The notes under the pieces: generated by a model
Databases searched by the model: none
Seen by the model: only the letters and a program-made list of their open reading frames with translations
Told to the model about the DNA's origin: nothing
Position numbers and translations under genes: made by a program
UHGV virus genome: UHGV-0043901
Reading direction: 5' to 3' (one strand)
From: a virus
DNA: 9,047 nucleotides
Part shown: positions 1-9,047 of the stretch, piece by piece
Numbering within the stretch: the first letter of the stretch is position 1
How the letters are laid out: each line of letters opens with the position of its first letter

Positions 1-2
1 AC

Positions 3-26
3 GGTGTAGTCAATGGTGTAGTTAAT
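3..26. repeat. Two tandem 12-mers (GGTGTAGTCAAT / GGTGTAGTTAAT) just upstream of the integrase start
   Basis: Direct tandem repeat, 11 of 12 identical, read directly from sequence at 3-14 and 15-26. Confidence 0.4.
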
Positions 27-49
27 TTTGATGACCGGAAACGCGAAAC

Positions 50-1288
50 ATGAGCAGCGCAATTCATAGACTTAGCGACACTCTTTTACGAAAATTAAGC
101 GGATCACCAACCACAAAAAACGCCTTTTTTAATGACGGTGGCAATCTTAGCGTAAGACATTCCACCAGCGGCCTGTTAACCTGGTATTTCACTTACAGGG
201 CCGGAACTGGTAGGCAGATATCACCGGAACGTCTGAGGCTGGGCAATTATCCCGATCTGAGCCTGAAAGCTGCCAGGGAAAAAGCGGCACAGTGTCGCGC
301 CTGGCTGGCTGAGGGGAAAAATCCGCGCTATGAACTTAATCATGCTGTACAGGACGCGTTAGCCCCCGTGACGGTTAAGGAAGCGCTCACTTACTGGCTT
401 GAATCGTACGCAAAGGAAAAGCGCACTGACTACGAATCACTGAAAAGCCGGATCAATAAACACATAATTAGCCAGATTGGCGCTATGCCACTGGAAAAAT
501 GCGAGCTACGCCACTGGCTGGCCTGTTTTGACCAGCTTGCTAAGCGTAATCCGGTATCAGCCGGATTTTTGCTACAGGTATGCAAACAGGCGCTTAAGTA
601 CTGCCGAAAACGACGATACGCAATCAGCAACGTTCTTGATGATATGGTTGTCGGTGATGTTGGGAAAAAAGCAGAAATAAGCGAGCGCGTACTAACAAAC
701 AAGGAGCTTGGGGAATTACTACGCGCCCTGGATGAAAAAATTTACCCACCGTACTACAGCGCCATGATTCGCCTCCTGATTGTCTTCGGATGTCGTACCA
801 CTGAGCTAAGACGCTCTGAGGTCCAGGAATGGGATTTTAAAGAAATGCTCTGGACCGTGCCGAAAGAACACAGCAAAACGAAGGTAGCAATATTCAGGCC
901 AATACCGGAAGCGATCTTGCCGTTCTTAACGAAGCTGGTGGAGCAGAACAGGCACACGGGATTATTGCTCGGAGAACTGAAAGGGCAATCATCCGTATCA
1001 GAGTACGGAAGAACGGCACACAGACGCATTAATCAAGCCCCCTGGACGTTGCACGACATCCGGCACACGTTTACAACGATGCTGAACGATTTAGGCGTGG
1101 ATCCTCATGTAGTGGAGCAGCTTACCGCGCACCAGTTGCCAGGAATGCAACGAGTCTATAATCACTCCCGTTATCTTGATGCAAAACGTGACGCTCTTAA
1201 TCTATGGGTTGAGCGTCTCGAGCTTCTCCAGAACAATGATGAAAAAATCGTTGTTATGACCCCGCGAATTTACTCCCAAAATTCTTGA
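50..1288 (+). CDS. int: Tyrosine recombinase / site-specific integrase, P4-like family (N-terminal arm-binding DUF4102-type region plus C-terminal catalytic domain)
   Basis: 412-aa ORF; N-terminus LSDTLLRKL...LSVRHSTSGLLTWYFTYR...LRLGNYPDLSLKAAREKA matches the P4-integrase N-terminal pattern; C-terminus has HDIRHTF (His-x-x-Arg-His) and a downstream Tyr in RVYNHSRY consistent with tyrosine recombinase catalytic residues. Confidence 0.9.
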   Translation: MSSAIHRLSDTLLRKLSGSPTTKNAFFNDGGNLSVRHSTSGLLTWYFTYRAGTGRQISPERLRLGNYPDLSLKAAREKAAQCRAWLAEGKNPRYELNHAVQDALAPVTVKEALTYWLESYAKEKRTDYESLKSRINKHIISQIGAMPLEKCELRHWLACFDQLAKRNPVSAGFLLQVCKQALKYCRKRRYAISNVLDDMVVGDVGKKAEISERVLTNKELGELLRALDEKIYPPYYSAMIRLLIVFGCRTTELRRSEVQEWDFKEMLWTVPKEHSKTKVAIFRPIPEAILPFLTKLVEQNRHTGLLLGELKGQSSVSEYGRTAHRRINQAPWTLHDIRHTFTTMLNDLGVDPHVVEQLTAHQLPGMQRVYNHSRYLDAKRDALNLWVERLELLQNNDEKIVVMTPRIYSQNS

Positions 1289-1336
1289 CAAATTACGGCT
1301 GTTTTTCTTCGGGAAAATAGCCGTCTTAAAAAAATC

Positions 1337-1368
1337 GTCGAAGCTCGACCAAAGTTCGTCGTTTTTTT
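1337..1368 (+). terminator. Possible weak terminator after int: short hairpin GTCGA-AGC-TCGAC followed at a distance by a T7 run
   Basis: 5-bp stem with 3-nt loop at 1337-1349; T-run at 1362-1368 is 12 nt downstream, so geometry is non-canonical. Confidence 0.2.
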
Positions 1369-1437
1369 ATTTGTCAATCATCGAAAAAATTGAAATTCAC
1401 TCTCCTGAATCCTTATTCTCTGTTTCTTGATTGTTCC

Positions 1438-1486
1438 AACACCTGATGGTTTATCTATTTGTTTTTAATGAGGTAATTCAGGTGTT
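1438..1486. promoter_or_regulatory. 9-bp inverted repeat AACACCTGA / TCAGGTGTT separated by a 31-bp AT-rich spacer in the int-alpA intergenic region
   Basis: Arms at 1438-1446 and 1478-1486 are exact reverse complements; lies in a roughly 410-bp noncoding AT-rich region (1289-1698). Confidence 0.35.
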
Positions 1487-1698
1487 ATGCCAAATGACGA
1501 CATTTTTTGTTGCGTCGCTTAAAAACTCGTGACACGATTTTAAACACTAACGAGCTTCTACGAACCTTAGCGAACAAAGCCTTTAGCATGGTTGTGTTTT
1601 TAATTTAAGAGGTGAAAAAGAATCTAAGTAATATCCGATCTCATATATCTACAGCTAAGAGAAAAGTTTATATACGTAATTTTTATGTAGGTTTTTGT

Positions 1699-1908
1699 AT
1701 GCGTGAAATAAATGAAGATCGTGTAATCCGCGAAAAAGAATGCAGAGAGCTAACAGGCGTTTGCCGCACAACTCGTTACGAGATGGAAAAGCAGGGCCGC
1801 TTCCCCTCACGTATCAGTCTCGGCGGTCGTTCTGTTGGCTGGGTTAAGTCTGAGGTTATGGAATGGGTTAAAAGCAGAAATCGTATTAATTCAGGTAAGG
1901 CAGCGTAA
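1699..1908 (+). CDS. alpA: AlpA-family phage transcriptional regulator (winged helix / MerR-like HTH)
   Basis: 69-aa product from the internal ATG at 1699; RELTGVCRTTRYEMEKQGRFPSRISLGGRSVGWVKSEVMEWV matches the AlpA signature (LTG-S-T-Y ... FP ... LGGRSV-W-SEV-EW). The ORF-track start at 1612 is a GTG with the Shine-Dalgarno abutting it, so the shorter form is preferred. Confidence 0.8.
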   Translation: MREINEDRVIREKECRELTGVCRTTRYEMEKQGRFPSRISLGGRSVGWVKSEVMEWVKSRNRINSGKAA

Positions 1909-2046
1909 AGGGGAGCATATGACACATAAAACAAAGGCGACCTGTGGCGGTCGCCAATGGGAAAACACTAAACATAAGCCCGAACATCATAGCGATTTGC
2001 TGGCTGGTGGGCAATGTGCTCAGTGTGCTGGCTTGCTGGTGGACTA

Positions 2047-2238
2047 TCAGCCTTTTGGTTCTATACCGCGCCGCTTTAGTTCTGTCCTGGCTAATTCTTT
2101 AAACCAGTTACCAAGGGTTAGACCGTCAGAAGTTGCCGCCTCATTTACTTGTTGGCGTAGCTCTTTACTGATTCTGATTTGGAAGGTTGGAGACCATCCC
2201 TCACCGCGTGGCGATTTATCGCGCTTTAATGTTGACAT
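2047..2238 (-). CDS. Arc/Mnt-like ribbon-helix-helix DNA-binding protein (putative repressor)
   Basis: 63 aa; PTFQIRISKELRQQVNEAATSDGLTLGNWFKELA aligns by eye with P22 Arc PQFNLRWPREVLDLVRKVAEENGRSVNSEIYQRV (beta-strand, helix, G-x-S/T-x-N, helix). AGGAG Shine-Dalgarno 12 nt upstream on the minus strand; a perfect inverted repeat directly abuts the start codon. Confidence 0.5.
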   Translation of the reverse strand: MSTLKRDKSPRGEGWSPTFQIRISKELRQQVNEAATSDGLTLGNWFKELARTELKRRGIEPKG

Positions 2239-2281
2239 GTACGTACGTAACTCCTATTATCATTGCTGTTACGTACGTACA
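2238..2281. promoter_or_regulatory. Operator-like perfect inverted repeat TGTACGTACGTAAC - 16 bp - GTTACGTACGTACA between divergent small genes
   Basis: Arms at 2238-2251 and 2268-2281 are exact reverse complements (14 of 14); each arm is itself built from alternating TACGTA palindromic units. Confidence 0.55.
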
Positions 2282-2370
2282 ATATCAGTAGGTACAGTAA
2301 AAAGCAAAGCCCCGCAAGTGTCGTTACCACTCGCAGGGCTTCTAACCAATAACGTAAAGGAGCTAAACGC

Positions 2371-2569
2371 TATGGCTGTAATACAGCATACCCCACACCT
2401 TGTACACACACAAACGGCCTTTGTGTGGCGTTTTCTGGCCCTGAGTGCCGGAGAATCTCAAATCATCCACGTAACCGCCTGGACGGAACGCGAAGCGCGT
2501 AGCCGTTGCCCGTCAGGTTGTGTTGCTGTATTTGCCGCTCGTATTCGTCAGGGGGTGTTCCATGCCTGA
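2371..2569 (+). CDS. Small protein, possibly Icd-like (host cell division inhibitor-like) family
   Basis: 65-aa reading from the internal ATG at 2371, preceded by AAAGGAG; motif FVWRFLAL...IHVTAWTEREARSRCPSGCVAVFAARI resembles the Icd-like small proteins common in enterobacterial islands (recalled pattern, not searched). The upstream part of the 244-aa track ORF is judged spurious. Confidence 0.4.
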
Positions 2570-2882
2570 CATGACCAATTACCAGTACCTGATTAATCCG
2601 CATTTTAAGTGTGATCATGATATTGCTAAGAAGGTTTATTCCGCTGCTGATGGGGCTACTGACAATATATCAATGGGTATTGCGTCAATTGGTAGCCTGA
2701 TGTGGCATGCGTCAGAAAATGAGGACTATGACGAAAAGGCCATGCGCATTGATATGGGTAATATCGGTTTGTTACTGGCAATGCTTGGGCAGTTTGATAT
2801 TTCGTTACGGTGCACCATTGAAAATGCCACAGATGCATTAAATGCCATAAAGAAAGCGAATACTGATTCAAATCGGGGATAA
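2562..2882 (+). CDS. Hypothetical protein (106 aa), no recognisable family
   Basis: ATG at 2562 with GGGGGTG Shine-Dalgarno, overlapping the stop of the upstream ORF; acidic, protein-like composition; same strand and tight spacing as neighbours. Confidence 0.5.
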   Translation: MPDMTNYQYLINPHFKCDHDIAKKVYSAADGATDNISMGIASIGSLMWHASENEDYDEKAMRIDMGNIGLLLAMLGQFDISLRCTIENATDALNAIKKANTDSNRG

Positions 2883-2888
2883 ATAATC

Positions 2889-3188
2889 ATGAGAACATAT
2901 TTATCTGGCTTGACTGCCAGCGGTTATGCACACCCCAAAATTATCCCCGGCGCTATTTATCTGGATAAGAACGGTAACAGAGTAACGGTAAAAGAACTGA
3001 TGTTTGACCGTGTTTATTTTATCCGTGATGGATATTCATTTCTTAGTTCGCTGAACGTGGAGATCTTTATTTGCAGATTCCGGCGGGAAATCCCGACTTC
3101 CAGAAATAACCATGTGTCATGTATGGATGTTGATAAAAAACTACAGGAACTAAAAAACATGATTGCCGCGTGGAGAGAGCAGAAATGA
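2889..3188 (+). CDS. Hypothetical protein (99 aa), translationally coupled to the primase gene
   Basis: Stop TGA at 3186-3188 overlaps the primase ATG at 3185-3187 (ATGA overlap). Confidence 0.5.
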   Translation: MRTYLSGLTASGYAHPKIIPGAIYLDKNGNRVTVKELMFDRVYFIRDGYSFLSSLNVEIFICRFRREIPTSRNNHVSCMDVDKKLQELKNMIAAWREQK

Positions 3189-5002
3189 AAAAAGCGCCAA
3201 ATTTAAAACACCAGCCACGTGACAAAATGACGGAAGTCATCATTTTTGCGGGTAGTGATGCGTGGGCACATGCGAAGCAGTGGCAGGAACAGGACGGGCG
3301 ACTGGCTGGCGACAGCGTGCCTCCTGTCTGGCTTGGAGAGCAACAACTTGCCGAACTGGACAACCTGCAAATCGTACCGGACGGACGCTATCGCGTGCGT
3401 CTCTACCAGGCGGGGTTATTGCGTCCGGGGCTTGTTAATACCATCGGGCAGAAACTGGCAGCGGCAGGTGTCAGGGATGCTGATTATTACCCTGAAGGAA
3501 TGCACAGCCAGAAACGGGAGAACTGGCGCGAATATCTGGAACGTGAACGGGCAGAGCAGGCGGAAAAGAAAAAGGTAGTTGAACTGCCTGTAAAGAAAAA
3601 AGAGCGGGTAAAAGACGATAACGCTTCATCACTGGCGCTTAACCAGATGGGAGCAAGTCAACGCGGCGAAGTTCTCCTGGCACATTATGGCGGTGAACTG
3701 GCGATTCATGCTGACTCTGACACTGTTCACTATTACAACGGCGTTGTATGGGAGCCAGTACAGGATAAAGAATTACAGCGAGCTATGGCACAGATTTTCA
3801 TTGATGCGGAGATCAGCTATTCGCAGAACGCCATTAAATCGGCGGTCGATACCATGAAGTTAAGTTTGCCTGTAATGGGGAATACAGCCCGTAACCTGAT
3901 TGGATTCAGTAACGGTGTTTTTGATACCCGGACAGGCGATTTTCGGGAGCATAACAAAAACGACTGGTTGTTAATTGCCAGTGAATTACCTTTCAGCCCA
4001 CCAGCAGAGGGGGAAACGCTGGCAACACATGCGCCGAATTTCTGGAAGTGGTTACGCCGTTCGGTGGCTGAGAATGACCGCAAGGCGGATCGCGTACTGG
4101 CTGCATTATTCATGGTGCTGGCGAACCGGTACGACTGGCAGTTATTCATTGAGGTAACAGGTCCAGGGGGAAGTGGTAAAAGCGTGATGGCGGAGATTTG
4201 CACCATGCTGGCGGGTAAGGCCAACACAGTATCGGCAAGCATGAAGGCGCTGGAAGATGCAAGGGAACGCGCGTTAGTGGTTGGCTTTTCGCTGATTATC
4301 ATGCCGGATATGACCCGCTACGCTGGTGATGGGGCAGGGATTAAGGCTATTACAGGCGGTGACAAGGTGGCAATTGACCCGAAACACAAAGCCCCCTACT
4401 CAACGCGTATTCCGGCAGTAGTGCTGGCGGTTAACAATAACGCCATGTCATTCAGTGACCGCAGCGGGGGGATCTCACGTCGTCGGGTGATATTCAATTT
4501 TTCGGAAGTTGTACCGGAGAACGAACGCGATCCAATGCTGGCGGAAAAAATAGAAGGTGAGCTGGCGGTAGTGATTCGCCATCTGCTTACACGGTTTGCT
4601 GACCAGGACGAAGCCAGACGCCTGTTATATGAGCAGCAGAAATCTGAAGAAGCACTGGCGATAAAGCGAGAGGGGGATTCGCTGGTGGACTTCTGCGGCT
4701 ATCTCATGGCGTCGGTAATGTGTGATGGTCTGTTAGTGGGTAATGCTGAAATTGTGCCATTCAGCCCACGCAGGTATCTCTATCATGCCTATCTGGCTTA
4801 TATGAGGGCACATGGGTTTGGTAAACCTGTAACACTGACGCGCTTCGGTAAAGATATGCCGGGGGCAATGGCGGAATATGGCAGGGAGTATATGAAACGG
4901 AAAACGAAGCACGGTTTTCGTTCAAACGTGACACTGACGGAGGAATCAGAAGACTGGATGCCATCATGTGTATCGGTCACTAATGACGATAGTAAAAATT
5001 AA
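3185..5002 (+). CDS. Replication initiator: P4-alpha / D5-type primase-helicase with P-loop NTPase (SF3-like helicase) domain
   Basis: About 605 aa from ATG 3185 (GGAGAG Shine-Dalgarno 7 nt upstream; the track start at 3170 is in frame). Walker A GPGGSGKS encoded at 4160-4183; downstream hydrophobic strand plus acidic residues (LIIMPDM) consistent with Walker B; lies immediately upstream of an iteron array. Confidence 0.88.
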   Translation: MKKAPNLKHQPRDKMTEVIIFAGSDAWAHAKQWQEQDGRLAGDSVPPVWLGEQQLAELDNLQIVPDGRYRVRLYQAGLLRPGLVNTIGQKLAAAGVRDADYYPEGMHSQKRENWREYLERERAEQAEKKKVVELPVKKKERVKDDNASSLALNQMGASQRGEVLLAHYGGELAIHADSDTVHYYNGVVWEPVQDKELQRAMAQIFIDAEISYSQNAIKSAVDTMKLSLPVMGNTARNLIGFSNGVFDTRTGDFREHNKNDWLLIASELPFSPPAEGETLATHAPNFWKWLRRSVAENDRKADRVLAALFMVLANRYDWQLFIEVTGPGGSGKSVMAEICTMLAGKANTVSASMKALEDARERALVVGFSLIIMPDMTRYAGDGAGIKAITGGDKVAIDPKHKAPYSTRIPAVVLAVNNNAMSFSDRSGGISRRRVIFNFSEVVPENERDPMLAEKIEGELAVVIRHLLTRFADQDEARRLLYEQQKSEEALAIKREGDSLVDFCGYLMASVMCDGLLVGNAEIVPFSPRRYLYHAYLAYMRAHGFGKPVTLTRFGKDMPGAMAEYGREYMKRKTKHGFRSNVTLTEESEDWMPSCVSVTNDDSKN

Positions 5003-5013
5003 ACTTATGGAAT

Positions 5014-5240
5014 AACTGTTCACCACTGTTCACCCTGTCATAAATATCTTTTATATCAGTATATTATAGGGTGAACAGTTATTTATGAACTGTTCACCAA
5101 ACTATTCACTGTTCACCTTTTTGATTGTTTATTGAGCTTCAAGGGTGAACAGTGGTGAATAGTTGGTGAATAGTTTTTGTGAAACTGTTCACCCCTTAAC
5201 ATTATGAATTAAAAGATAAAATATCAAAAGGTGAACAGGT
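5014..5240. repeat. Origin of replication: iteron array of 9-mer CTGTTCACC / GGTGAACAG in both orientations with AT-rich spacers
   Basis: Perfect copies on plus strand at 5016, 5026, 5090, 5109, 5185; reverse-complement copies at 5070, 5144, 5230; degenerate GGTGAATAG at 5154 and 5165; 11-bp palindromic pair GGTGAACAGTT-7bp-AACTGTTCACC at 5070-5098; interspersed AT-rich stretches (5041-5068). Confidence 0.8.
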
Positions 5241-5289
5241 GAAGGGTTAAAACGCAAAAATTTTAATTTACTGCTGTGAGATAAAGCCT

Positions 5290-5535
5290 ATGACAGCGAA
5301 GCACACAAAAAAATCACAATCGCACGCCCTTGATTTGACGGAACACTGGTTAAGGGTGTCGATAAAAATCATCGACCGCAACGCGGGGGAAGGATATGCG
5401 AAAGCACATCCCGAACTGATTAGCGCATTCATGACAACGGCAGCTGCAAACTTTGCCACGCTGACAGAACGGGAGATTGCCGAAGCGGAACAGGTGACAA
5501 CCATCAACGTTAAAACCAGTGAGGTGGAATCATGA
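5290..5535 (+). CDS. Hypothetical protein (81 aa) coupled to ssb
   Basis: Stop TGA at 5533-5535 overlaps the ssb ATG at 5532 (ATGA); weak Shine-Dalgarno, no recognisable motif. Confidence 0.4.
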   Translation: MTAKHTKKSQSHALDLTEHWLRVSIKIIDRNAGEGYAKAHPELISAFMTTAAANFATLTEREIAEAEQVTTINVKTSEVES

Positions 5536-5942
5536 CAGCACAGATAGCAGCTTACGGGCGGCTGGCAAGTGACCCGCAGTTAAAGACCACCAGCAAGGGC
5601 ACACAAATGGCTATGGCGAGCATGGCGGTCCCCCTGCCGTGCAGCCAGTCGGATGACGGTCAGGCGACGATGTGGTTATCTGTTCTGGCGTTTGGCAGAC
5701 AAGCCGACGCGCTGGCAAAGCATCACAAAGGCGAACTCCTGAGCGTGGCGGGTAACATGCAGGTGAGTCAGTGGACTGGACAGAACGGTGAAACGCGGCA
5801 GGGCTGGCAGGTTATCGCAGACAGCGTAATCAGTGCGCGAACGGTGCGACCGGGCGGGAACAGACGCAAAACCACAGGCACACAGGGTAATCAGCCACCA
5901 GCGGGAGACGATGACCCCTACGGTGATGATATTCCGTTCTGA
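5532..5942 (+). CDS. ssb: Single-stranded DNA-binding protein (OB-fold SSB) with canonical acidic C-terminal tip
   Basis: 136 aa; N-terminal IAAYGRLASDPQLKTTSKGTQMAMASMAV and conserved Trp and Lys-Gly positions fit the SSB OB fold; Gly/Gln/Pro-rich linker; C-terminus DDDPYGDDIPF ends in the DDIPF tail also seen in E. coli SSB. GAGGTGG Shine-Dalgarno. Confidence 0.8.
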   Translation: MTAQIAAYGRLASDPQLKTTSKGTQMAMASMAVPLPCSQSDDGQATMWLSVLAFGRQADALAKHHKGELLSVAGNMQVSQWTGQNGETRQGWQVIADSVISARTVRPGGNRRKTTGTQGNQPPAGDDDPYGDDIPF

Positions 5943-5950
5943 ACGCACAG

Positions 5951-5973
5951 GCCGGAGAAAATCCGGCTTTTTG
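5951..5973 (+). terminator. Rho-independent terminator (GCCGGA-GAAAA-TCCGGC plus T5)
   Basis: 6-bp GC-rich stem with 5-nt loop and TTTTT tail, 9 nt after the ssb stop. Confidence 0.7.
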
Positions 5974-5984
5974 TATCCAAAAAA

Positions 5985-6021
5985 AGCCCGATAAGTACAG
6001 GAGGAAGCTTATCGGGCTTTT
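5985..6021. terminator. Second hairpin (AGCCCGATAAG - 12 nt loop - CTTATCGGGCT) flanked by an A-run upstream and T-run downstream; possible bidirectional terminator
   Basis: 11-bp perfect stem at 5985-5995 / 6008-6018, A6 at 5979-5984 and TTTT at 6018-6021. Confidence 0.4.
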
Positions 6022-6095
6022 GCTTACGAGGTTAACAGCATGGTGACTACTGTTGCTGTAAATCATTTCATAATTTGCAACGTAACTCAATTTTA

Positions 6096-6123
6096 TTGCA
6101 CAAAATGCAATCATGATTATAAT
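6096..6123 (+). promoter_or_regulatory. Candidate sigma70-type promoter for the head-gene operon (TTGCAC - 16 nt - TATAAT), overlapped by a 14-bp perfect palindrome ATGATTATAATCAT (6113-6126)
   Basis: -35-like hexamer at 6096-6101 and consensus -10 at 6118-6123; the palindrome embeds the -10 and is a candidate operator. Confidence 0.4.
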
Positions 6124-6157
6124 CATAACTGGATGAACATACAGTTATGATTTTTTA
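6122..6157 (+). promoter_or_regulatory. AT-rich hairpin (ATCATAACT - 12 nt - AGTTATGAT) followed by a T6 run in the 5' leader of the head operon; possible attenuator / terminator
   Basis: 9-bp exact inverted repeat at 6122-6130 and 6143-6151, then TTTTTT at 6151-6156, between the putative promoter and the first Shine-Dalgarno (AAGAGGA at about 6163). Confidence 0.3.
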
Positions 6158-6179
6158 AGTCAAAGAGGAATTTCTGACT

Positions 6180-6386
6180 ATGGCAGAAGAGAAAAAAGGC
6201 GGTGTTTCGGTGTACATAAGCCCCGAAATCGTGGAGGTGCTCAAGCAGCGCCACAAAAAAAACTATGAGGCTGGCGTGGCGGCTGGACTGGATCCGCTGA
6301 TGACGCCGGAGCCGTCGATAGGTTCACTTGTGCGCTCTTATTTACTTGCGGCGCTTGGGATGCATAAAAATTATGGGGGTGAATAA
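6180..6386 (+). CDS. Small protein (68 aa), first gene of the head operon; possibly ribbon-helix-helix-like
   Basis: Strong Shine-Dalgarno AAGAGGA; stop TAA overlaps the capsid ATG (TAATG at 6384-6388); pattern VSVYISPEIVEVLKQ then helices is compatible with a ribbon-helix-helix fold, but this is weak. Confidence 0.5.
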   Translation: MAEEKKGGVSVYISPEIVEVLKQRHKKNYEAGVAAGLDPLMTPEPSIGSLVRSYLLAALGMHKNYGGE

Positions 6387-7441
6387 TGGCAGGCAAAGCA
6401 ACGGCACTTAACACTAACCAGCTTTTTGCGTACCTGAATCGCGGGGATATTGCGGAATTTAAATTCAGTCCGCTGTTTACCACGCTGTTTTTCCCGAACG
6501 TGGCGACATTCAACACCCAAAACATCATGCTGGACACCCTGGACATTGAAGAGGTTACGATGTCGGCGTTTTGTTCGCCTATGGTGGGTAGTCAGGTCCA
6601 GCGCGATAAAGGGTACGAAACCAGCACGATTAAACCTGGATACATGAAGCCGAAGCACGAAATCGATCCAACGAAAACCATCATGCGTATGGCTGGAGAA
6701 GATCCGGCACAGCTTAATGACCCAACCTATCGCCGTATGCGCCTGATTACTGGCAACATGCGCCGCCAGATAAACGCGATTAAAGCGCGCGTGGAATGGC
6801 TGGCGGTGAATGCGGTAACGACCGGAAAAAACATCATTGAGGGCGAAGGCATAGAACGCTATGAAATCGACTGGAAGATACCGGAAAAAAACATCATAGA
6901 GCAGGCCAAAGGCCGTAAATGGTCCGAGCAGGACAAAGAAACCCACGATCCAATCTATGATATCGAGCTTTATGCGGATCAAGCAGGTTGCCCCGCCAAC
7001 GTCATGATCATGGGCGCTGAGGTATGGCGAACGTTACGCAGCTTTAAAAAATTCCGCGAACTGTACGATCTTTCCCGTGGTTCAGAGTCCGCCGCCGAAC
7101 TGGCCTGTAAAAACCTGGGCGAAGTGGTGAGCTTTAAAGGCTATCTGGGCGATATTGCCCTTATCGTCTATTCCGGCAAATACACTGACAGCGACGGCAC
7201 AGAAAAATATTTCCTTGAGCCTGATTTGCTTGTCCTGGGCAACACCAACAATAAAGGGCTGGTGGCCTATGGTGCGATTATGGATCAGGACGCAGTAAGA
7301 ACGGGCGCAACGCAAAACATGTTTTACCCGAAAAACTGGATTGAGGACGGCGATCCGGCGATTGAGTACGTGCAGACGCACAGCGCACCGCAGCCGGTTC
7401 CGGCAGATATTCGCAAATTTGTTACCGTCAAAATTGGTTAA
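6386..7441 (+). CDS. Major capsid protein, lambda gpE family
   Basis: 351 aa versus 341 aa for lambda gpE, with blocks matching the recalled gpE sequence: FKFSPLFTTLFF (gpE FKFDPLFLRLFF), SPMVGSQV (SPIVSGEV), PGYMKPKHEIDP (PGYVKPKHEVNP), EDPAQLNDPTYRRMR (EDPQNLADPAYRRRR), WSEQDKETHDP (WSKRDKSTYDP), YPKNWIEDGDPA (YPKNWVTTGDPA). GGGGGTG Shine-Dalgarno. Confidence 0.9.
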   Translation: MAGKATALNTNQLFAYLNRGDIAEFKFSPLFTTLFFPNVATFNTQNIMLDTLDIEEVTMSAFCSPMVGSQVQRDKGYETSTIKPGYMKPKHEIDPTKTIMRMAGEDPAQLNDPTYRRMRLITGNMRRQINAIKARVEWLAVNAVTTGKNIIEGEGIERYEIDWKIPEKNIIEQAKGRKWSEQDKETHDPIYDIELYADQAGCPANVMIMGAEVWRTLRSFKKFRELYDLSRGSESAAELACKNLGEVVSFKGYLGDIALIVYSGKYTDSDGTEKYFLEPDLLVLGNTNNKGLVAYGAIMDQDAVRTGATQNMFYPKNWIEDGDPAIEYVQTHSAPQPVPADIRKFVTVKIG

Positions 7442-7452
7442 CGGGGGATTCT

Positions 7453-7788
7453 ATGGACACTCCATACATTGAGTTATTTGCAGGCAGTCAGCAGGTCGCC
7501 ACGACGCTGGTACATTTTGCCGCTGATGCTGGCGTTATTCAGGAATTTACCCCGCTGATGCTGGCGGACAATGGCGAGTTTAAGCCGTGGGATGGTAAGG
7601 AATCTGGCAAGGCTGTTTATCTGACCTCGTACCCTGTTGACACGTCAAAGCAGAAATCAGCACAGTGTTACAAGATGGGGATATTCAATATTGCCGCCGT
7701 TAACTGGCCTGAGAGCGTCGACACCGATGCGAAAAAATGCGCCGCCTTTGCGGGTTCTGGCGTATCCGTTCAGCCGCTGGCCCGATAA
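7453..7788 (+). CDS. Head decoration protein, lambda gpD family
   Basis: 111 aa versus 110 aa for gpD; shared TPLML, WDG, YK-G-F, WPE, D-x-KK-x-AFAG-x-x-S blocks with recalled gpD; GGGGGAT Shine-Dalgarno; immediately follows the capsid gene. Confidence 0.75.
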   Translation: MDTPYIELFAGSQQVATTLVHFAADAGVIQEFTPLMLADNGEFKPWDGKESGKAVYLTSYPVDTSKQKSAQCYKMGIFNIAAVNWPESVDTDAKKCAAFAGSGVSVQPLAR

Positions 7789-7800
7789 GCAGGGGGAACG

Positions 7801-8214
7801 ATGGCAACGAATGAAAGCATCATGACGCTACCGCTGGCGAGTAAATTTAAAGCCGAAGCGCGGGCAATGGCTGACAGAGGGTTATCAACCTACGAGGCCA
7901 TATATCAACTTAACAAACTGGAAGAGCAGGACAAGCCGCGCGCTGATGCGATTATGGCGCTTGATGAATCTGGCGACTATCAGCCGCTGTTACGTGCAAT
8001 GGCAAACGTGCCTTGTATCGATGTTGGTACGGCTAAAAGCATCCTTAGCATGACCATAGAGCAGGAACGTCTGAAGGTTGCGCCGGAACTTACCGCAGCC
8101 TTTGAAAACTTTATGGACATGCACAGCCCGCAAGCCGTATCAGCTGGCATGGCATACGATGGCAGAAACCAGGGCGATGACGGCGACATCGATCGCATAC
8201 TGAAAACCATCTGA
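7801..8214 (+). CDS. Hypothetical protein (137 aa), last gene of head module, no recognisable family
   Basis: AGGGGGAA Shine-Dalgarno 3 nt before the ATG; acidic, protein-like composition; followed 6 nt later by a strong terminator. Confidence 0.55.
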   Translation: MATNESIMTLPLASKFKAEARAMADRGLSTYEAIYQLNKLEEQDKPRADAIMALDESGDYQPLLRAMANVPCIDVGTAKSILSMTIEQERLKVAPELTAAFENFMDMHSPQAVSAGMAYDGRNQGDDGDIDRILKTI

Positions 8215-8220
8215 GACAAG

Positions 8221-8242
8221 GCCGGAGAAATCCGGCTTTTTT
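8221..8242 (+). terminator. Rho-independent terminator (GCCGGA-GAAA-TCCGGC plus T6), near-identical copy of the 5951-5973 terminator
   Basis: Same stem sequence as the terminator after ssb, loop one A shorter, T6 tail. Confidence 0.7.
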
Positions 8243-8244
8243 AC

Positions 8245-8440
8245 GGGTCCTTCCTGGAATTATGGCCCGTTACGGGGCGGCGACCTCGCGCGTTTTCGCT
8301 ATTTATGAAAATTTTCCGGGGAAAATCATGTCGGTACTTCTCGAACATAACTATTTGTTTTTTCTAATATCGAATCCGTAAAAGGTCCGACATGAAAACG
8401 CCTGAAAAAGTCATTTTCGGGCACTCTCATGTCGGCCCCT
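8245..8440 (+). other. cos site (cohesive-end packaging site): cosQ-like region, cosN (GGGCGGCGACCT at 8275-8286) and cosB with three R-like sites
   Basis: 8245-8319 is nearly identical to the recalled lambda cos region (GGGTCCTT-CC...TTACG GGGCGGCGACCT CGCG-GTTTTCGCTATTTATGAAAATTTTCCGG). Downstream R-site positions are collinear with lambda R3-I1-R2-R1, but the repeats read CATGTCGG (8327-8334, plus), CCGACATG (8387-8394, minus), CATGTCGG (8428-8435, plus) instead of lambda CGTTTCC. Distance from cosN to the terS ATG (188 nt) matches lambda (cos to Nu1, 190 nt). Confidence 0.85.
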
Positions 8441-8462
8441 GTATTTGCTATGAGACTATTTC

Positions 8463-9047
8463 ATGAAGGTTAATAAAAAGAAGCTTGCCGAAATTTTCAA
8501 CGTGGATCCGCGGACGATTGAACGCTGGCAGTCTCAGGGGCTTACTTGTGTCTCCGGAGGTGGTAAGGGCGTTGAATCTGTATTTGATACCGCCATGGCA
8601 ATTCAGTGGTATGCGCAGAGGGAAGCTGATATCGAAAACGAAAAGCTCCGGAAAGAACTGGAAGATTTGCGGGCGGCTGCAGAATCAGACTTACAACCGG
8701 GCACCATTGACTATGAGCGCTACCGGCTCACAAAAGCGCAGGCAGATGCGCAGGAGCTTAAAAACGAGCGCGAACGCGGCGACGTTATTGATACAGCGTT
8801 TTGTATATACGTGCTTTCAAAACTGGCGAGTCAGATTTCATCAATCATGGACAGCCTCCCGCTTACTATGCAAAGGAGCTTCCCACAGATGACCCCCGTC
8901 ATGCTGGATGGCCTGAAAAAAGAAGTTGTCAGAGCCTGTAACGCATGCACAAAACTTGATGAAAACATCCCGCGAATGCTGTCCGATTATCTGATGGAAA
9001 CTACCGGAAATGTGCCTGATAAGTTTCAGCCGGATAAAGACAAGTAA
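8463..9047 (+). CDS. terS: Terminase small subunit, lambda Nu1 family (N-terminal winged-HTH cosB-binding domain)
   Basis: 194 aa; collinear similarity to recalled lambda Nu1 across the whole length: [12 protein letters not shown] (MEVNKKQLADIF), [20 protein letters not shown] (EIENEKLRREVEELR), [26 protein letters not shown] ([26 protein letters not shown]), TAFC, LPL. Stop codon is the last three bases of the window. Confidence 0.88.

Follow-up and report, generated by a model that had tools for sequence, protein, structure and literature searches.

We analysed a stretch of 9,047 nucleotides listed as UHGV virus genome UHGV-0043901 (hereafter the window), which is an exact substring, bases 1539-10585, of contig L002 from Escherichia coli (GCA_024125605.1, 202 kb) and which covers 9.0 kb of an island of about 10.4 kb lying between yljB and clpS. 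The island has the gene content of a phage-inducible chromosomal island (PICI) related to EcCICFT073, the prototype of the Gram-negative PICIs, in which the genes c1499 and c1500 are described as "putative capsid protein" and "head decoration protein" (PMC6092414). The window was checked by a six-frame listing of open reading frames (ORFs) together with profile scans against Pfam and PHROG, and the ends of the island were set by aligning L002 to the empty site of E. coli K-12. All genes are intact, and all except one gene of 63 amino acids (aa) lie on the plus strand. The original prediction, made from the letters of the window, had listed an integrase, AlpA, a primase-helicase, iterons, gpE- and gpD-like proteins, a cos site and a Nu1-like small terminase (TerS), every one of which is present and intact, and had read them as a satellite replication backbone unusually fused to a lambda-type head and cos module. 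The claim of an unusual fusion does not hold, since the same layout occurs in EcCICFT073, with 97-99% identity in the products of the major capsid protein (MCP) gene, the decoration (Dec) gene and the gene after them, and matches the PICI model of SatelliteFinder. Judged by gene content and order, the architecture is the standard layout of a known PICI family and not a new fusion.

The left end of the island is occupied by an intact tyrosine integrase gene, int (50-1288, plus strand, 412 aa; Phage_integrase PF00589, E = 2.5e-19; Arm-DNA-bind_3 PF13356, 1.7e-16), which is co-oriented with the genes downstream of it. These include alpA, for an AlpA-family regulator (1699-1908, plus strand; PF05930, 7.7e-18), and pri-rep, for a D5-type primase-helicase of 605 aa (3185-5002, plus strand; D5_N, 1.1e-13; DUF5906, 1.7e-10; Pox_D5, 4.6e-13). 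Just 3' of pri lies an AT-rich segment (5016-5238, GC about 0.40) with 10 copies of the iteron GGTGAAYAG in both orientations, all of the copies in the window being inside this segment and 0.12 being expected by chance. We regard it as a putative replication origin following the primase gene, as in Gram-negative PICIs, for which a functional origin downstream of pri has been shown (PMC6092414). An MCP-like gene comes next and then a terS homologue beside a cos site, so that int, alpA, pri with its origin, capsid gene and terS succeed each other in an att-flanked element that carries no further structural or lysis genes and whose 10.4 kb fall in the size range of classical Gram-negative PICIs (about 10-15 kb). 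The PICI model of SatelliteFinder consists of int, alpA, pri-rep, capsid and terS, with other structural genes excluded (PMC10085698), and on comparison with this published model all five core components are present in the canonical order.

The empty site of K-12 aligns with L002 at 99% identity as far as position 1421 and again from 11808 onward, placing the att junctions at L002 1408-1421 and 11808-11829. The att core is the 14-22-bp overlap of the two alignments (TAGTTATYTATCAT...) at the 3' end of yljB, and this end is the insertion point, between cspD and clpS. Both flanks of the island consist of chromosomal genes with 99% identity to K-12, namely macB, cspD and yljB upstream and clpS and clpA downstream. 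The stop codon of terS ends on the final base of the window, and on L002 terS is followed by a single 96-aa ORF, then attR and then clpS. Extension beyond the window, which the original prediction had proposed as a way to find att direct repeats, recovered both copies; the attL core is not part of the window and begins the island 118 bp ahead of base 1. Both att copies accompany an intact integrase. A tRNA gene was considered as integration site, and a tRNA scan found none in the window. By megablast against complete E. coli genomes, the same element is present at about 93% identity and at the same site in several strains, and the compact layout with both att copies recurs at this dedicated yljB-clpS site in many genomes.

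Short repeats also mark the two ends. Tandem GGTGTAGTYAAT repeats at 3-26 (plus strand) are mirrored inside the island near its right end (L002 about 11714-11740), and they are probably arm-type integrase-binding sites. A 15-bp direct repeat is found at L002 1550 and 11726; this repeat, AATGGTGTAGTTAAT (window 12-26 and L002 11726), was considered as the att core and rejected, because the comparison with K-12 puts both copies inside the island and the true junction elsewhere, which makes them more likely to be arm-type sites for Int. In addition, the motif TTGTTCG clusters at both island ends (window 1-49; L002 1422-1540 and 11690-11740), where Int, AlpA or an excision factor may bind it.

At the opposite end of the window lies a complete cos site (8245-8441, plus strand). 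It contains an exact copy of the lambda cosN 12-mer, GGGCGGCGACCT, at 8275-8286, preceded by cosQ (GGGTCCT, 8245-8251) 23 nt upstream of cosN, which is the offset of the annotated phage 21 cosQ. The cosB that follows is of the phage 21 type: the R-type core TCATGTCGG occurs three times, starting at 8326 (plus), 8387 (minus) and 8427 (plus), against 0.07 expected occurrences. These copies define an R3 core (8326-8334), an inverted R2 core (8387-8395) and an R1 core (8427-8435), with an I1-like (IHF) stretch between R3 and R2. The whole is collinear with the phage 21 cosB annotated in OL657228, to which R3 is identical at 15/16 positions and R2 at 16/16, R1 having the same core. The start codon of terS (ATG) is at cosN position 189, which is precisely its place in phage 21. 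On its left side cosN is preceded by sequence that resembles the region upstream of EcCICFT073 cos1 and not any phage. A search of the window and of L002 for a second cosN gave none.

A GC hairpin with a T run (GGCCGGAGAAATCCGGCTTTTTT; 8220-8243, plus strand), read directly from the sequence and conserved upstream of EcCICFT073 cos1, has the form of a terminator that would end the capsid-like operon ahead of cos. Nearly the same hairpin and T run (GGCCGGAGAAA(A)TCCGGCTTTTT) occurs twice, at 5949-5969 after ssb and at 8220-8243 before cosQ, and the two may be terminators that bracket this operon.

The gene beside cos, terS (8463-9047, plus strand), encodes a Nu1-type small terminase of 194 aa that matches PF07471 (2.1e-73) over 161/164 profile positions. 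A search of PDB sequences with TerS retrieved the lambda TerS chain 6hn7_B (1.7e-38) and zero Rpp chains. In EcCICFT073 this slot is taken by rppA; here it holds the 194-aa Nu1 homologue, and the adjoining cosB carries three R repeats. The island thereby departs from the Rpp-type subgroup of E. coli PICIs, in which an rpp gene for 139-154 aa follows a PICI-specific cosB free of R repeats. By homology, then, TerS is a true Nu1 homologue and not an Rpp. PDB entry 7lwr, a 54-residue fragment named 'Terminase, small subunit', also matches residues 1-54 of TerS (8463-8624) with 3.3e-27 and about 50/54 identities.

Comparison of the two halves of TerS indicated different origins. Residues 1-95, which comprise the winged-helix DNA-binding domain and a long helix, are identical at 87/95 positions to phage 21 gp1 and to the TerS of the icd-site prophage of strain CFT073, while the DNA-binding part shares only 26-27/70 residues with other PICI TerS proteins. 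Residues 96-181, in turn, are identical at 82/86 positions to the TerS of the RM13322 PICI, compared with 33/86 for phage 21 and 40/86 for lambda. The same division is seen in the DNA, in which cosB and the 5' part of terS are 88-96% identical to lambdoid prophages that have terL and portal genes after terS, and the 3' part of terS matches other PICIs only. These alignments identify TerS as chimeric, with residues 1-95 of phage 21 type and residues 96-194 of a PICI lineage. One of the matching prophages is the CFT073 icd-site prophage, situated 37 kb from rppA, which we take to be the published helper, prophage 4. The full-length cosB-terS combination was found in 4/5426 complete E. coli genomes and the rppA segment in 97 of them. 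A chimeric TerS in place of rppA, and its pairing with a full phage-21-type cosB, appear to be new.

Upstream of cos lies a block of three capsid-like genes on the plus strand. The first (6386-7441) encodes a full-length gpE-type MCP homologue of the HK97 fold with 351 aa (PF03864 Phage_cap_E, 1e-51), 44% identical to lambda gpE. It forms a lineage of its own: lambda gpE and the MCP of the CFT073 prophage are 44-45% identical to it, and the MCP of the RM13322 island is 56% identical. Compared with c1499, its nucleotide identity is 94.5%, with pS 0.195, pN 0.016 and a dN/dS of 0.07, from which we conclude that the gene is under strong purifying selection. The second (7453-7788) encodes a gpD-type head decoration protein homologue of 111 aa (PF02924, 3e-17) that is 36% identical to lambda gpD. 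The third, orf137 (7801-8214, 137 aa), is otherwise annotated as hypothetical. Along its entire length it corresponds to phrog_1999 (9.2e-64), so the absence of a scaffold gene stated in the original prediction has to be corrected: the ORF encodes a stand-alone protein with a Nu3-like scaffold domain.

This assignment was drawn from profile and pairwise comparisons. Two further proteins hit phrog_1999: the gpC-like protease-scaffold protein encoded by the icd-site prophage of CFT073, through its residues 365-501 (1.5e-68), and lambda Nu3, through its residues 117-200 (2.7e-26). In addition, orf137 itself matches the C-terminal end of phrog_53, a "head maturation protease" family (3.8e-8). By BLAST, residues 49-131 of orf137 align with the same gpC-like prophage protein, which is 501 aa long, at its residues 416-493 (36% identity, 2e-9). 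The BLAST comparison with lambda gpC was not significant, the link to lambda being at the profile level only, and nothing was found in Pfam even at E = 1. On these matches orf137 is homologous to the scaffold (Nu3) domain at the C-terminus of lambdoid gpC/Nu3 proteins, and the Nu3-like identity of the gene after the decoration gene appears to be new. We presume, by gene order only, that its counterpart in EcCICFT073 is possibly c1501, the gene tetA-marked in published work. An identity of orf137 as Rpp was also considered and rejected, as no Rpp or TerS sequence in the PDB matched it.

What this block does is the main point on which the island can be read differently. It could supply the island with a shell of its own, as the original prediction proposed, with the island MCP, Nu3-like scaffold and Dec assembling on the helper portal with the helper protease into island-specific and possibly small heads, which the island cos and TerS would then fill, in the manner of a partial capsid-forming PICI (cf-PICI). 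The three genes are indeed full length and adjacent, the low dN/dS of the MCP gene and the conservation of the block relative to EcCICFT073 (97-99% identity, compared with 48-82% for the rest of the island) speak for it, and MCP homologues such as SaPIbov5 Ccm redirect capsid size (cited in PMC6092414). Against this, neither a portal nor a protease is encoded, and EcCICFT073 with c1501::tetA still transfers at high frequency, c1501 being equated with the scaffold-like gene by gene order only. Moreover, deletion of c1499 or c1500 from EcCICFT073, whose block is 97-99% identical to the one studied here, left island transfer and interference with lambda unchanged, and the packaged EcCICFT073 DNA was all phage-sized with no monomer-sized band (PMC6092414). 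An own capsid shell is therefore unsupported and conflicts with the published results for a near-identical module, and we consider this reading quite improbable.

To judge from the near-identical EcCICFT073 genes, which are dispensable, the block is not needed for transfer, and we do not think that it builds a shell for the island. Most probably its role is helper-dependent, in that it modifies or poisons helper capsid assembly or serves as a backup. We see as unlikely, yet worth keeping in view, a combined possibility: with the right 21-type helper the MCP, Dec and Nu3-like proteins would be a working shell kit, used on the helper portal or co-assembled into helper heads, the family would be intermediate between classical PICIs and cf-PICIs, and the chimeric TerS would be a second redirection route independent of Rpp. 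For the MCP and Dec genes of the EcCICFT073 family, the Nu3-like neighbour together with the purifying selection on the MCP gene sharpens the hypothesis of a helper-dependent interplay in capsid assembly.

The lambdoid ancestry of these genes raises a further alternative, in which the locus is the remnant of a decaying lambdoid prophage whose head and cos genes were left, immobile, beside an unrelated int-primase cassette. The capsid, decoration and scaffold genes, like cos and terS, descend from lambdoid phages, and parts of terS and cosB remain 88-96% identical to prophages. However, decay fits poorly with a locus in which all genes are intact, the MCP gene is under purifying selection, and the same compact layout with both att copies occupies a dedicated site in many genomes. 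The order E, D, Nu3-like, cos, terS also differs from the lambda order (Nu1, A, W, B, C/Nu3, D, E), and experiments have shown that EcCICFT073, the sister island, is mobile (PMC6092414). We judge a remnant to be very improbable.

The extent of the missing gene set was followed beyond the window. We found no portal, protease, large terminase (TerL), tail, lysis or immunity genes in the island, comprising the window and its L002 flanks, and no match to TerL, portal, head protease or head-tail adaptor or connector families among the scanned ORFs or in the interval from terS to clpS. The absence of portal, protease, tail, lysis and immunity genes, noted for the window in the original prediction, thus holds through attR on L002. 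Two options that the same prediction had left for the sequence past 9047 are closed. A cf-PICI would require portal, protease or large terminase genes there, and an ordinary prophage a contiguous lambdoid structural, tail and lysis set; instead, the 96-aa ORF, attR and clpS are all that follows terS, and chromosomal genes flank the island, which excludes both. The helper-dependent satellite that the prediction proposed is borne out by a locus with no virion genes beyond MCP, Dec, scaffold and TerS and with both att copies and an intact int.

Taking these observations together, we assign a probability of roughly 85% to the reading that the window belongs to an integrated, helper-dependent classical Gram-negative PICI of the EcCICFT073 family, which has its own cos and TerS and uses helper heads. 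A life cycle can be proposed for it, carried over from EcCICFT073 as the experimentally studied relative. In that island AlpA is the helper-activated inducer (PMC6092414), with helper-driven activation of alpA and a requirement for int, alpA and pri-rep (PMC6092414, PMC6739421). By the same logic, a lambdoid helper phage would turn alpA on here, Int and AlpA would excise the island, and the D5-type primase-helicase would fire the iteron origin 3' of its gene so that concatemers form. The island would then be packaged via its own cos, with the island TerS, alone or mixed with the TerS of a 21-type helper, assembling on the R sites of the island cosB and recruiting helper TerL to cut cosN. The terminase would fill helper-made proheads, most likely full-sized ones with about four island copies; four copies amount to 41.6 kb, compared with the 42.9-kb genome of phage 21.

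Within this scheme, the DNA-binding half of TerS is 21-type, the same type as the island cosB, and the C-terminal half, of a PICI-specific lineage, is predicted to hold the oligomerisation and TerL-contact regions. With a helper that has a lambda-type cosB, capture of TerL by the island TerS would redirect packaging, much as Rpp does. Several points weigh against the proposal. With a 21-type helper, the shared cosB specificity means that TerS alone would not discriminate against helper DNA. The last 41 aligned residues of TerS are identical to those of phage 21 or lambda TerS at only 12-14/41 positions, and because of this poor conservation the binding of helper TerL is the weakest step. The strong purifying selection on the MCP gene shows that it has a function missed by the published assays, and its dispensability may hold only for the helpers tested. 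Finally, the TerS islands of strains IHE3034 and 18098, tested in 2018, were not mobilised by resident prophages (PMC6092414).

The remaining genes of the window are small. The sole divergent gene (2047-2238, minus strand, 63 aa) is ribbon-helix-helix-like, of Arc, HicB or YlcI type, with weak matches both to HicB (0.0025) and to an Arc-like repressor (2e-4), and a YlcI/YnfO protein is annotated at the same position in relatives; its product is possibly a regulator. On the plus strand follow a gene for an Icd-like small protein of 65 aa (2372-2569; phrog_1743, 6e-23), orf106 (2562-2882; phrog_15327, 1e-71) and a DUF4222 gene (2889-3188; PF13973, 6e-17). Beyond the origin are orf81 (5290-5535; phrog_1231, 7.5e-49), the SSB gene (5532-5942; PF00436, 4e-16) and orf68 (6180-6386; phrog_3255, 8.5e-46), the stop of which overlaps the MCP start, all likewise on the plus strand. 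The 238-bp gap at 5943-6179 holds no gene here, and in EcCICFT073 and the 23CRST038 island it holds a PerC-family gene with or without more small ORFs.

The best sigma-70-like promoter match in the window, TTGACA-17-TATTAT (2232-2260, plus strand), agrees with the consensus at 11/12 positions; it is identified from the consensus alone, and promoter-like sites are, in total, no more numerous in the window than in shuffles. The match extends over the start of the divergent gene (63 aa) and points toward the icd-like, primase and packaging genes. Nearby, a long hairpin (2306-2342) is terminator-like on the minus strand. From these elements, the region looks like a regulatory switch.

The left half of the island also prompted comparison with P4, whose label had been attached to the replication genes in the original prediction. 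A P4-like satellite would depend on a P2-type helper, and int, AlpA, an Icd-like gene and a D5-type primase-helicase are common to P4 and this island. The resemblance stops there: no family of psu, delta, sid or Ash/epsilon was found among the ORFs scanned with Pfam and PHROG, the cos is of lambda/21 type and not of P2/P4 type, and PICIs and P4 have only AlpA, Pri and a few other proteins in common (PMC6092414). The P4-like label was accordingly dropped, and a P4-like identity can be regarded as extremely improbable.

Among known systems, cf-PICIs such as EcCIEDL933 draw their int, alpA and pri from the same pool, and they have MCP and TerS genes as the island does. They differ in encoding TerL, portal, protease, HNH and head-tail connectors and in forming their own small capsids (bioRxiv 10.1101/2022.09.08.507074), and these genes are absent here. 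SaPI1 CpmB and SaPIbov5 Ccm, a scaffold and a capsid homologue encoded by satellites, offer an analogy in that such proteins could engage helper capsid assembly; small capsids were not seen for the EcCICFT073 family (PMC6092414). Phage 21, and with it the group of 21-type lambdoid prophages, shares with the island an identical cosN, the same cosQ offset, the same position, orientation and core of R3, R2 and R1, and the 87/95 identity over TerS residues 1-95; unlike phage 21, the island has no terL after terS, its TerS has a C-terminal half with 33/86 identity, and the remaining phage genes are absent.

Closer relatives occupy the same site. The yljB-clpS islands of 23CRST038 and RM13322 have the same int-alpA-pri-ssb-MCP-Dec-x-terS-orf layout, and with them we group the TerS-encoding E. 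coli PICIs of IHE3034 and 18098 (PMC6092414), by shared site and layout. These TerS-encoding PICIs differ from the island in the N-terminal DNA-binding domain (26-27/70 identical), and the RM13322 island (L014), which has the same C-terminal half of TerS, further differs in three genes: its primase is of the DUF927 kind, its MCP is 56% identical, and the Nu3-like slot is occupied by an excisionase-like HTH gene. These comparisons suggest that modules are shuffled freely within the yljB-clpS PICI family. Of 29 reference Gram-negative PICIs, 21 have an MCP gene (bioRxiv 10.1101/2022.07.18.500453). As a class the island is ordinary: catalogues have listed classical E. coli PICIs that combine an MCP gene with terS or rpp since 2018, and SatelliteFinder recognises them automatically. 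In the searchable literature, no study of TerS-encoding E. coli PICIs after 2018 was found.

EcCICFT073 itself corresponds to the island gene for gene, in the same order from int to the last small ORF. Protein identities are highest for Dec (c1500, 99%), orf137 (98.5%) and MCP (c1499, 97%), followed by orf81 (87%), SSB (82%), Int (77%), the final small ORF (71%), orf68 (68%), AlpA (61%), Pri (48%) and the Icd-like protein (47%). Both have an iteron origin after pri, and the cosQ-cosN region with the preceding hairpin is nearly identical. For EcCICFT073, helper induction, high-frequency transfer and interference with the helper have been shown, and it is packaged cos-dependently, as phage-sized DNA, by lambda, phi80 and a resident 21-type prophage (PMC6092414, PMC6739421). 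A second cosN of EcCICFT073 lies inverted downstream of rppA (L010 15298). It is integrated next to phoQ, in contrast to the position between yljB and clpS here, and it has a private cosB without R repeats together with RppA (144 aa). It needs the helper TerS, with which RppA heterodimerises and which it retargets (PMC6739421, PMC9026076). In the island studied here, a 21-type cosB containing three R sites and a full-length TerS encoded by the island stand in their place, and rpp, a second cosN and the PerC gene are absent. As judged from this alignment of modules, the difference between the island and its prototype is confined to the packaging module. For TerS-type E. coli PICIs, the domain-swapped TerS and its matching 21-type cosB offer a concrete model of how DNA could be chosen without Rpp.

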